Below are positions 3,187-60,030 of a stretch of 64,000 bases of DNA, in pieces. The stretch lies in sequence record OQ708376.1; one strand, written 5' to 3'. The notes below the pieces were generated by a model. The model was not told where the DNA came from. It searched no databases and saw only the letters and a list, made by a program, of their open reading frames with translations. Numbering within the stretch: position 1 is the first letter of the stretch; the number at the start of each line of letters is the position of its first letter. Position numbers and translations under genes: made by a program. The stretch comes from Escherichia phage vB_EcoM_CRJP21.

Positions 3187-3214
3187 AGCCCATAGGGTGC
3201 GGGAGTGTATCTAT
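3187..3214. repeat. R2 motif copy (AGCCCATAGGGTGCGGGAGTGTATCTAT)
   Basis: about 28-bp motif recurring at about 9172, 13194, 16469, 18721. Confidence 0.55.
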
Positions 3215-9110: not shown

Positions 9111-9202
9111 AAAAAGTGGTTGACTTCGGTCAGCCATTTTGTTATTATATATTCATTGAGAGATAGCTCACTAGCCCACAGGGTGCAGGAGTGTATCTAT
9201 TG
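9111..9202 (+). repeat. intergenic cassette copy A: hairpin-embedded promoter (R3) + R2 28-mer
   Basis: TTGACT-17-TATTAT inside inverted repeat, then AGCCCACAGGGTGCAGGAGTGTATCTAT. Confidence 0.55.
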
Positions 9203-9320
9203 TATGAGTATTGAGTACTGAAAACTATTTTTAAAAAGTACTTGCAAACTATCTCAATAAGCGTATAATGTTTTACATCGAAAGGGGAAACGGTTTCCCC
9301 TGGTAATAAGGAAACAAATC

Positions 9321-10581: not shown

Positions 10582-10779
10582 ATGATTAGCATGAAATCAG
10601 TACAAAAACAAATAGAAACATTATCAAAAATTAAACGTAAACAGTACTCCTTAGAATATACAATCAATGGTAACTATCATCTAATGAAAGAGAATAATTT
10701 TATAGTCATTGATGAATCATTGCAAATCATTAGTATAGTACTGAAAGCATTAATCAATGACAGAAAAAAATTAAAATAA
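10582..10779 (+). CDS. hypothetical protein (65 aa; alt start 10591)
   Basis: track ORF preceded by R4 motif. Confidence 0.45.
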   Translation: MISMKSVQKQIETLSKIKRKQYSLEYTINGNYHLMKENNFIVIDESLQIISIVLKALINDRKKLK

Positions 10780-10874
10780 ACTATTGACAATATCATCAAG
10801 TACTGGCATAATACTTACATCAAGACGAGAACGTCACTAACCCATAGGGTGCACAAATGTAACTGTATAATATT

Positions 10875-10905
10875 GATCAAAAAATGATCTGATCAATACT
10901 TGATC
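10875..10905. promoter_or_regulatory. cluster of four GATC sites (three TGATCA palindromes) in 31 bp
   Basis: direct read; intergenic. Confidence 0.5.
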
Positions 10906-11110
10906 AATTTGCGTAAAGTAGTATAATTCTATGCAGTTGGTTAGACGAAAGGTTATGATTAGTAGTGCAAGTGTATAAAAATTTTCATGGTGTATCGTTT
11001 CGCACATATGGGGATGAATATGTGGTATCATGTGGATTGGAAAAAGTAAGAACAAGTAATATTATTGTCGCATTACAGTACTATAGTATTTTTATAATGA
11101 GGTTAAAATA

Positions 11111-11368
11111 ATGGCTGTAGGATTCGCGAAAGATGGGGCCGAACAAGACGAGATTAACGCAGTGATTCAGGCCGCCGTTAACCACGCTAGAAAGCAAATT
11201 AACGCACAAATAGAATCACTGATACATTGCCTCGACTGCGGCGATATAATCCCTGAGAATCGACGCCAGGCCGTTAAGGGATGTAAGTACTGCATAACTT
11301 GCCAGGAGGATCATGATAGTACTTTTAAACGTCCCCCGCGTAATTGTTGGCATAGATCTATGAGATAA
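11111..11368 (+). CDS. TraR/DksA-family C4 zinc-finger protein
   Basis: CLDCGDIIPENRRQAVKGCKYCITC matches CxxCG-x3-IP-x2-RR-...-C-x2-C signature. Confidence 0.65.
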   Translation: MAVGFAKDGAEQDEINAVIQAAVNHARKQINAQIESLIHCLDCGDIIPENRRQAVKGCKYCITCQEDHDSTFKRPPRNCWHRSMR

Positions 11369-13137: not shown

Positions 13138-13234
13138 AAAAAGGGATTGACTCCGGTCAGTCCCTTTGCTATTATATACGCATAGAAACAAATCAGCCCA
13201 CAGGGTGCATAAATGTATCTATTGTTTGCTGGTG
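13138..13234 (+). repeat. intergenic cassette copy B (R3 hairpin-promoter + R2) followed by Chi octamer 13227-13234
   Basis: near-identical to copies at 9111, 16409, 18667. Confidence 0.55.
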
Positions 13235-13299
13235 GCTAGTACTGAAAACTATTTTTAAAAAAGTACTTGCATTGTACTTAGAATCAAGTATAATGTTTT

Positions 13300-13375
13300 A
13301 CATCAGGACGGGGAACGAAACAAGTAACCCCGTTAAGTAGTCCAGGAGTAAGACATAAGAAAACCTCCCCTGATA
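13300..13375 (+). ncRNA. candidate structured leader / small RNA (copy 2)
   Basis: about 90 percent identical by eye to 3390..3465; between tandem promoters. Confidence 0.35.
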
Positions 13376-16408: not shown

Positions 16409-16498
16409 AAAAGGGATTGACTCCGGTCAGTCCCTTTGCTATTATATATTCATTGAGAGATAACTCACTGACCCATAGGGTGCGGAAGTGTATCTATT
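16409..16498 (+). repeat. intergenic cassette copy C (R3 + R2)
   Basis: near-identical to other copies. Confidence 0.55.
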
Positions 16499-16619
16499 AT
16501 ATAAGTATTCAGTACTGAAAACTATTTTTAAAAAAGTACTTGCATTGTACTTAGAATCAAGTATAATGTTTTACATAGAGAGGGGGAAATGGTTCTCCCT
16601 GGTAATAAGGAATAAAATC

Positions 16620-18652: not shown

Positions 18653-18666
18653 CAAAAAAGAATAAA

Positions 18667-18790
18667 AAAAGGGATTGACTCCGGTCAGTCCCTTTGCTAT
18701 TATATACTCATAGACAAAAACTAGCCCACTGGGTGCAGGAGTGTATCTAAAATATATAGTTAATAACGGTGAGTAACTATCTGCTGGTGG
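18667..18790 (+). repeat. intergenic cassette copy D (R3 + R2) followed by Chi octamer 18783-18790
   Basis: direct read. Confidence 0.55.
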
Positions 18791-59508: not shown

Positions 59509-60030
59509 ATGTCGAAGAAGGATGCTTCGAAAAAACATTCAGTACATTTTAGTACTGGAAAAGATAACTGGACAACTCCAAAGGATTTCTTTGAAGATTT
59601 GGATGAACTCTGGGAATTTACACTAGATGCAGCATGTGTCAAAGAAACTGCATTGTGTGATAATTTTTTCACTCCAGAAGATGATTCACTGTCACAGGAT
59701 TGGGGAAATAATATAGTTTGGTTGAATCCACCATATAGTGACTTGAAAACTTGGTTATCCAAAGCAGTAGATGCATATAATAACGGGGCAACTGTAGTTA
59801 TTCTTGTACCCTCAAGAACCGATACAATTGCTTTTCAGGATTATGCTGCTAAAATATGTGATTGTATTTGTTTTATTAAGGGAAGATTGAGATTTGGTAT
59901 ACCAGAAGAACCCGATAAGAAAACAGATTCAGCACCATTTCCTTCGTGTCTGATAGTACTGGATAAGTACTTAACCACTGCTAAAATCAATTATCTTAAA
60001 TCTCTTGGGTTGGTGATGAAGAATTTATGA
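59509..60030 (+). CDS. phage-type DNA N6-adenine methyltransferase (Dam-like)
   Basis: WTTPKDFFEDL N-terminal motif and NPPY catalytic motif. Confidence 0.7.
   Translation: MSKKDASKKHSVHFSTGKDNWTTPKDFFEDLDELWEFTLDAACVKETALCDNFFTPEDDSLSQDWGNNIVWLNPPYSDLKTWLSKAVDAYNNGATVVILVPSRTDTIAFQDYAAKICDCICFIKGRLRFGIPEEPDKKTDSAPFPSCLIVLDKYLTTAKINYLKSLGLVMKNL

Follow-up and report, generated by a model that had tools for sequence, protein, structure and literature searches.

The four GATC sites clustered upstream of the TraR/DksA-like gene in Escherichia phage vB_EcoM_CRJP21 are two 15-bp dyads of the form GATCAW-N3-WTGATC, and they lie on and just upstream of a predicted sigma-70-type promoter that we call P3. 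It is a genuine and unusual cluster, the only one of its kind in the genome, and judging from its sequence and that of its relatives we think that the units probably serve as a methylation-sensitive switch of the promoter rather than as an origin of replication. All positions refer to the window, which is the whole 64-kb stretch of DNA that was analysed.

Two GATC dyads on a predicted promoter

The first-pass annotation had reported four GATC sites within 31 bp, three of them as TGATCA palindromes, in an interval that also carries a variant of the repeat R2, and all of this was correct. The GATC sites start at 10875, 10886, 10891 and 10902, the palindromes start at 10874, 10890 and 10901, and the R2 core, AACCCATAGGGTGC, is at 10839-10852 on the plus strand. 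Successive GATC starts are 11, 5 and 11 bp apart, and each unit is a GATC-N7-GATC. Unit I (GATCAAAAAATGATC, 10875-10889) has its two GATC sites 11 bp apart and is centred at -52 from the predicted P3 start. Unit II (GATCAATACTTGATC, 10891-10905) is centred at -36 and overlaps the predicted -35 hexamer of P3. P3 itself (TTGATC-16-TATAAT, 10900-10927, plus strand) was predicted by consensus match, with a start near 10934.

GATC is under-represented in the window, with 133 copies against 208 +/- 14 in dinucleotide shuffles. This is the only spot in the 64 kb with four GATC inside 200 bp, and four GATC in 28 bp have a probability of 0.0035 per 64 kb under uniform placement. In the complete genome of an unannotated relative, TH47 (350 kb), there are 573 GATC where 1125 are expected from composition. 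The homologous locus has five GATC in 67 bp (null P = 0.0016) and is the only place in those 350 kb with at least four GATC in 80 bp. An ordinary cluster density for the genome, which had been named as counting against any significance of the cluster, was not what we found; it is the sole dense cluster in the window and in TH47.

The spacing and the flanks of the GATC sites are what define the dyad. In all units the GATC starts are exactly 11 bp apart, and in TH47 there are six adjacent GATC pairs with this spacing, compared to an estimate of about one expected. The pattern GATCA-N5-TGATC has three copies in the 350-kb TH47 genome, all of them intergenic, and two are at the present locus. When we compared nine units, GATC was followed by AW in 18 of 18 half-sites, compared to 24-29% of GATC sites genome-wide, and positions outside the 15 bp were weakly conserved. 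GATC alone is therefore not the conserved unit, and a reader more specific than Dam or SeqA is implied.

The form of the units is kept while their positions change. Unit I is centred at -52 in three lineages, which are the clade of the window, the 121Q clade and Erwinia phage Hallingskeid. The centre of unit II relative to the predicted P3 start is at -36 in the window, +4 in the 121Q clade and -9 in the Erwinia phage, so depending on the lineage it covers the -35, the -10 or the start site and is always on the core promoter. In the 121Q clade, GATCAATAAATGATC is in the place of unit I, there is a lone GATC in the -35, and the second dyad, GATCAAATCTTGATC, comes just past the -10. In Hallingskeid the upstream unit is GATCAAGAAATGATC, and GATCAATAATTGATC covers the -10. 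The centre-to-centre distances of 16, 56 and 43 bp across these lineages show no helical phasing. We also considered a 37-bp palindrome or hairpin made from both units as the conserved feature and rejected it; it exists in the window clade only, and unit II is elsewhere in the 121Q and Erwinia phages.

A third GATCAW-N3-WTGATC unit is found outside the window, in E9.1 (at about 80.4 kb), TH47 (26415) and 121Q. It is flanked by an intrinsic terminator and a conserved TAAATACC(C/G)AAGG motif, about 55 nt before a gene start, and the motif resembles a late promoter in its sequence. In TH47, 121Q, ECO103 and E9.1 both GATC sites of this unit are kept and the centre varies (AAAAAT, ATATTT, AAAAAA). 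Beyond these genomes, a scan of IMG/VR with ATNGATCAANNNATGATC gave more than 120 matches, all apparently by chance; none was beside an R2 core and none resembled this locus.

It could be that the cluster has no selected function and arose by local duplication of an A/T-rich, -35-like sequence (TTGATC is close to TTGACA) in a mobile or optional cassette. The two units of the window do form a 16-bp tandem direct repeat that is 81% identical (repeat search), TTGATC itself serves as the predicted -35 of P3, the cassette around them is dispensable, and the homologue of its gene orf48 in Pectobacterium phage CBB has no units upstream. We nevertheless consider this quite improbable. Over 53 nt covering R2 and unit I, coliphage and Erwinia phage Hallingskeid are 87% identical in nucleotides, although the adjacent protein is down to 36% identity. 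Second units at independent positions have the same 11-bp spacing and the same flanks, and the third unit, at another locus, is kept across clades. The 87% identity could reflect either strong constraint or mobility of the cassette.

Candidate readers of the dyads

The exact spacing, the conserved flanks, the turnover of position with the form kept and the association with promoters all point to a protein-binding dyad, and we think it likely that the dyads are cis-regulatory protein-binding units for P3. They would be operator sites for a dimeric DNA-binding protein, with unit I, fixed at -52, as the anchor. Because unit II is always on the core promoter, it would occlude or remodel the binding of RNA polymerase. 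The predicted P3 heads a small accessory operon that consists of orf48, a conserved 48-aa gene, and then the DksA-like gene, which is translationally coupled to it. The site had been described as lying upstream of the TraR/DksA-like gene; this is so, but the first target is the 48-aa gene, and the DksA-like gene would be reached only via translational coupling.

The best sequence fit for a reader would be the host nucleoid protein Fis. The 15-bp core of Fis is GnnYAnnnnnTRnnC, or GNTYAAAWTTTRANC (PMC6907758, PMC10380432). We compared the units at G -7, C +7, Y -4, R +4, A -3, T +3 and the A/T-rich centre. Of the 13 positions that GNTYAAAWTTTRANC specifies, each of the nine units matches 10-12 (unit I matches 11), six of these matches being automatic from two GATC sites 11 bp apart, and A/T makes up 4-5 of the five bases in the centre. 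The Fis core and the dyad have the same extent and the same conserved positions. The consensus is degenerate, and sites with at most two mismatches to it occur at chance level in the window (16 compared to 16.6 +/- 4 in shuffles); two of them are adjacent here, an adjacency that is not independent of the GATC clustering. There is also a look-elsewhere cost, as the fit was reached after a mental screen of many regulators. FNR, CRP, IHF, LexA and SlmA were rejected on misfitting spacings when their consensus sequences were compared by eye. Fis alone would not hold the dyad to A at -6 and C at -4, and two Fis dimers on units 16 bp apart from centre to centre might clash.

We infer that methylation is involved because every half-site keeps a full GATC, which Fis does not require. 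N6-adenine methylation would gate binding to the dyads, and its source would be host Dam and probably also the Dam-family enzyme of the phage. The output of P3 would then be set by the growth state of the host, through the level of Fis, and also by the state of the phage DNA, which would be fully methylated when it comes in and hemimethylated or unmethylated when it is replicating. As a specific mechanism, a Fis-type site gated by adenine methylation is our tentative first choice, and we hold it with well under even confidence.

There is a similar arrangement at the inside end of IS50/Tn5. In 1992 Weinreich and Reznikoff reportedly found a site that overlaps the inside end of IS50 and that Fis can bind only while the GATC sites in it are unmethylated. 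As at the phage locus, a core with the Fis consensus carries GATC, and methylation decides whether a host protein binds, which ties activity to the state of replication and methylation. The IS50 element differs in that it is a transposon end and not a promoter, and its GATC sites overlap (GATCAGATC), whereas those of the phage are at both ends of the core. Binding was shown by experiment for IS50, while the phage site is known here as a sequence.

The phage enzyme that may contribute to this methylation is at 59509-60030 on the plus strand. It had been called an N6-adenine methyltransferase of unknown specificity, and it does belong to the phage Dam family, with a match to Pfam PF05869 'Dam' at E 2e-31 (109 bits, with a cut-off of 28.1). 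The NCBIfam equivalog TIGR01712 scored 89.6 bits, which is below its cut-off of 97.05. Its sequence is about 31% identical to enzymes of the VT2-Sakai and HK97 types, and with other coliphage adenine methyltransferases it shares 33-36% identity along about two thirds of the protein. Since it does not reach that cut-off and has an identity of only about 30% to relatives that are reported to be GATC-specific, GATC is not established as its target.

The locus had been likened to Dam/SeqA-controlled regions, and pure sequestration of P3 by SeqA would work as follows. Fully methylated incoming DNA would let P3 fire, the hemimethylated pairs present after the first replication would bind SeqA and silence P3, and expression of orf48 and the DksA-like gene would thus be limited to the pre-replicative period. 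Pairs of GATC about one helical turn apart and on the same face are a preferred substrate of SeqA (PMC2691817, PMC10380432). The cluster is unique in a GATC-depleted genome and its GATC cores are invariant, a Dam-family enzyme is encoded, and one unit is always over the core promoter. Compared to SeqA-type sites in general, there are at least two same-face GATC within about 31 bp and the density is above background, but the flanks are not free. We know of no demands that SeqA or Dam make on the bases flanking GATC, so the A and then W after every GATC of the dyads, which follow about a quarter of the sites genome-wide, count against this reading. The two pairs of the window are also on opposite helical faces, 16 bp apart, and SeqA would need access to the replication intermediates of a jumbo phage. 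Taken as the whole explanation, sequestration seems unlikely to us.

The known SeqA clusters (E. coli oriC, the dnaA promoter and P1 oriR) are like the phage locus in having GATC sites within tens of bp and in pairs about one turn apart. In both cases the DNA is A/T-rich, a promoter is nearby and the replicon has a Dam+ host. The SeqA clusters differ in having no constraint on the flanks and in being essential or linked to an origin, whereas the phage units have invariant flanks and are in a dispensable block with no DnaA boxes.

A dedicated regulator, encoded by the phage or an uncharacterised host factor, could also recognise (T)GATCAW as its half-site. The GATC would then be incidental, with no role for methylation, and the regulator would shut off or tune P3 at the switch from early to middle expression. 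Phage repressors classically have a dyad of 15-17 bp on a promoter, and such a regulator would explain the spacing, the flanks and the invariance of GATC in one step. The motif is kept in phages of different hosts, E. coli and Erwinia. In JNE01, where the third unit is lost, both half-sites changed together, to TGTACA and TGTCAC, as might be expected for a regulator with its own motif. On the other hand, no candidate protein was found, and the adjacent orf48 does not have a helix-turn-helix or ribbon-helix-helix fold. Three units per 350 kb are few for a phage-wide regulator, and the coincidence with the extent and the conserved positions of the Fis core would be unexplained. We rate a dedicated regulator as possible and somewhat doubtful. 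Both it and SeqA acting on hemimethylated DNA remain close rivals of the Fis-type reading.

A further reading would be an epigenetic timer. Host Dam and the Dam-family enzyme of the phage would together set the methylation of two dyads that Fis or SeqA can read. The early DksA-like operon would fire only at a particular state of replication and methylation and a particular growth state of the host, and the same dyad would be reused at one other promoter in the genome. We consider such a timer unlikely. If it is true, it would be a methylation-gated switch run by a host factor in a lytic jumbo phage.

Promoter sites that carry GATC are already known as a kind, and the present locus is a further instance. 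At IS10 pIN, Mu mom (OxyR), agn43 (OxyR) and pap (Lrp), GATC sites are likewise in a regulator site or in core hexamers, and methylation and binding are mutually exclusive. The regulators, motifs and spacings of those systems are different. They also serve phase variation or replication coupling in bacteria and temperate elements, and here the setting is the early region of a lytic jumbo phage.

Hardly any work has been done on how Rak2-like jumbo phages regulate their genes, and what is published ends at consensus promoter predictions (PMC5259590). A literature search for binding, methylation or transcription reports, GATC clusters, methylomes or AGTACT bias in these phages found none. The dyad is a concrete and precise cis-element handle on this regulation. 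It is conserved and used three times per 350-kb genome, on promoters of a GATC-depleted genome that encodes a Dam-family enzyme. If gating by methylation or Fis is true, a lytic phage would be reading the physiology of its host or its own replication state to control a DksA-like modulator of polymerase. If gating is false, the dyad still marks the operator of another regulator.

In the 121Q clade the first GATC of unit I overlaps a ClaI site (ATCGATC). ClaI does not cut where its site overlaps a methylated Dam site, and digesting virion DNA of this clade with ClaI would therefore report the methylation of this GATC. Phage fEgEco12 has been digested with ClaI, and the band for this site was not discussed (PMC13070987).

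An optional cassette within the terminal repeat

The window comes from the left genome end of a jumbo coliphage of the genus Asteriusvirus (PBECO4/SHEFM2K/121Q group). A 951-bp query around the site has 97-99.8% identity to SHEFM2K, PBECO4, SP27 and E9.1, and about 89% identity to the 121Q group. In records that hold both genome ends the region is present twice, and in vB_Ec-M-J it is within an annotated 21.5-kb direct terminal repeat; the published terminal repeats of Sharanji and fEgEco12 are 20.7-21.0 kb. From this duplication and annotation we place the start of the window near the left genome end and the GATC site in the middle of the repeat, about 10.9 kb into a direct terminal repeat of about 21 kb. 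The repeat is dense with small genes behind strong sigma-70-type promoters (consensus matches).

Within the repeat, P1 (an upstream promoter described in the next section), R2, the GATC units, P3 and orf48 make up an optional cassette of 332 bp (10780-11111, plus strand) that is missing from a sister clade. A 9-bp direct repeat, TTAAAATAA, bounds it at 10771-10779 and 11103-11111. In ph0011 the block is absent and a 65-aa ORF directly adjoins the DksA-like gene. phAPEC6, ph0011, UE-S1 and ECO103 4-12-1 cover 62-66% of the 951-bp query, and the matches of the first three are listed as two pieces. EJP2, EC22.5-2, G17, Sharanji and A4 match only the first ~86 bp of the block, which is the P1/R2 part. 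This makes nine Asteriusvirus genomes without the full block, four with the gap and five with the first ~86 bp. As the whole 332 bp are absent from the clade of ph0011, phAPEC6, UE-S1 and ECO103, the cassette is dispensable to the phage.

The interval had been called a gene-free 330 bp, and this does not hold. It contains P1, R2, P3 and a conserved 48-aa gene, orf48 (10965-11111, plus strand; 121Q gp293, PHROG 38664), and the truly non-coding part is 10780-10964 (185 bp). The start codon of orf48 is a GTG, 12 nt after GAAAGG, and its stop overlaps the ATG of the DksA-like gene as TAATG. At about 79% DNA identity the frame is kept and the substitutions are mostly conservative. The gene downstream (11111-11368, plus strand) encodes a TraR/DksA-type C4 zinc-finger protein (Pfam PF01258, E 5e-11; PHROG 54).

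Homologues of orf48 are present in Erwinia phage Hallingskeid (60 aa, pairwise E 3e-9, 36% identity) and, unannotated, in Pectobacterium phage CBB (~893-1040 of the locus examined), where there are no GATC units upstream. A wider linkage between the GATC units and orf48 was rejected, as the CBB homologue lacks the units and a match in RaK2 is a different small protein. In public records, SHEFM2K has a 29-aa call and an antisense ORF at orf48, and CBB, SP27, UB and vB_Ec-M-J have no call. At the Hallingskeid locus, an HNH endonuclease gene (1014-1442) is directly upstream of the homologous P1-R2-GATC-orf cassette.

We considered orf48 as an autoregulator and set this aside. An AlphaFold model predicts four strands followed by one helix, with no helix-turn-helix or ribbon-helix-helix; the mean pLDDT was 86, with the five models at 48-86 from a 2-sequence alignment. 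A database search with orf48 gave two cluster representatives only. The model had no significant fold match in the PDB (best E 0.78). The orf48 protein also has no similarity to the neighbouring 65-aa and 59-aa ORFs.

Origins had also been named for clustered GATC sites, and a replication origin of the oriC or P1 oriR type would be one possibility here, a packaging site made of TGATCA hexamers as in P1 another. Clustered GATC in A/T-rich DNA beside promoters recalls oriC, and P1 oriR likewise has clustered GATC in A/T-rich DNA near promoters. However, an entire sister clade of viable phages lacks the block, so it is not kept in all viable relatives. We found no DnaA box (TTWTNCACA) in 1-22 kb of the window, and so none within 10 kb of the site, and a repeat search found no other repeats or iterons at the site besides the two units. 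The GC skew has no inflection here, its cumulative curve climbing steadily and monotonically over 1-30 kb, through the site.

The pac site of P1 uses clustered TGATCA/G hexamers, and in both phages such a hexamer occurs three to four times in about 30 bp of DNA, Dam sites included. P1 has two clusters that flank the cleavage point, inside the pacase gene. Here there is one cluster instead of two around a cut site, it is about 10.9 kb inside the ~21-kb terminal repeat and not at a terminus, and it is absent from sister phages that package normally. An origin or a pac site at this locus is thus very improbable, and origin searches are better directed elsewhere whichever regulatory reading is right.

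The earlier proposal of a Dam/SeqA-controlled region, an origin or a regulated promoter, therefore survives in its second part. The GATC sites are on or just upstream of a predicted sigma-70-type promoter in 11-bp, same-face pairs, the 121Q clade and the Erwinia phage keep them with some turnover, and the phage encodes a Dam-family enzyme. The origin part falls with the absence of the block from the sister clade and the lack of a DnaA box and of a skew inflection.

Promoters, R2 and the paralogous cassettes

The cassette opens with P1, a predicted sigma-70-type promoter (TTGACA-17-CATAAT, 10784-10812, plus strand) that has a TG before the -10 and 11 of 12 consensus matches, with a predicted start near 10819. 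The R2 core follows, and between R2 and unit I we read a TATAAT hexamer (10866-10871, plus strand) that has no -35 partner. The paralogous R2 cassettes have TGTATCTAT where this TATAAT aligns.

The R2 core is ARCCCAYNGGGTGC followed by (T/C)GTATCTAT. A core pattern search of the window found nine copies, with 0.76 expected, and all are in the first 19 kb, within the terminal repeat: 1091-, 3187+, 3246-, 4778-, 9173+, 10839+, 13195+, 16470+ and 18723+, with strands as given. Each copy is about 25 nt downstream of a sigma-70-type promoter like P1 and upstream of a second promoter. We considered R2 as a candidate structured leader RNA, since its flanking arms seemed to covary by eye; RNAalifold on 16 copies gave an invariant 4-bp hairpin only and no covariation or compensatory changes. 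An Rfam scan of the whole window had no family at the gathering score. The copies at 3187+ and 3246- point towards one another, and transcripts from the two would overlap as antisense RNAs.

The cassette can be aligned with three paralogous cassettes (R2 at 9173, 13195 and 16470), and in the alignment the R2 cores, the -35 hexamers and the -10 hexamers fall in register. P3 aligns with their TTGCAA/TTGCAT-16-TATAAT promoters at 9242, ~13265 and ~16540. Upstream of the -35 the paralogous cassettes have AGTACTGAAAACTATTTTTAAAAAAGTAC, an A/T tract like an UP element, and the GATC dyads are in its place here. Just upstream of the second-promoter -35, at 9205-9270, 13230-13300 and 16505-16575, there is AAAACTATTTTTAAAAAA, bracketed by two AGTACT palindromes. 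By eye we take AAAACTATTTTTAAAAAA to be a close match to the UP-element consensus. We infer from this alignment that an UP-like, constitutive element was swapped for factor sites in this cassette. UP-like A/T tracts have been reported at RpoD-like promoters of phage CBB (PMC5259590).

The arrangement is similar to promoters of the rrnB P1 type, where a strong sigma-70 promoter has upstream of it a UP-like tract, as in the paralogous cassettes, or Fis-like sites, as in this cassette. The Fis sites of rrn are centred at -71 and further upstream and are activating, whereas the placement of the phage units at -52 and over the core promoter points to repression or remodelling.

At several promoters of the P1 type (~9113-9148, ~13140-13180, ~16415-16455 and ~18665-18705) the -35 (TTGACT) is inside the stem of a terminator-like hairpin, GGGATTGACTCCGGTCAGTCCC and then TTTGCTATTAT. 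One sequence would then serve both to end the upstream unit and to start the next.

The AGTACT palindrome is itself very abundant. The 64 kb contain 254 copies compared to about 21 expected, an 11.9-fold excess, and the next palindromic hexamer is at 2.3-fold. It often occurs as CAGTACTG (62 copies). TH47 has 909 copies in 350 kb, and in CBB, RaK2 and the Erwinia phage, short loci from the early region have 13-15 where less than one is expected. We found AGTACT in promoter spacers, beside the UP-like tracts and inside genes.
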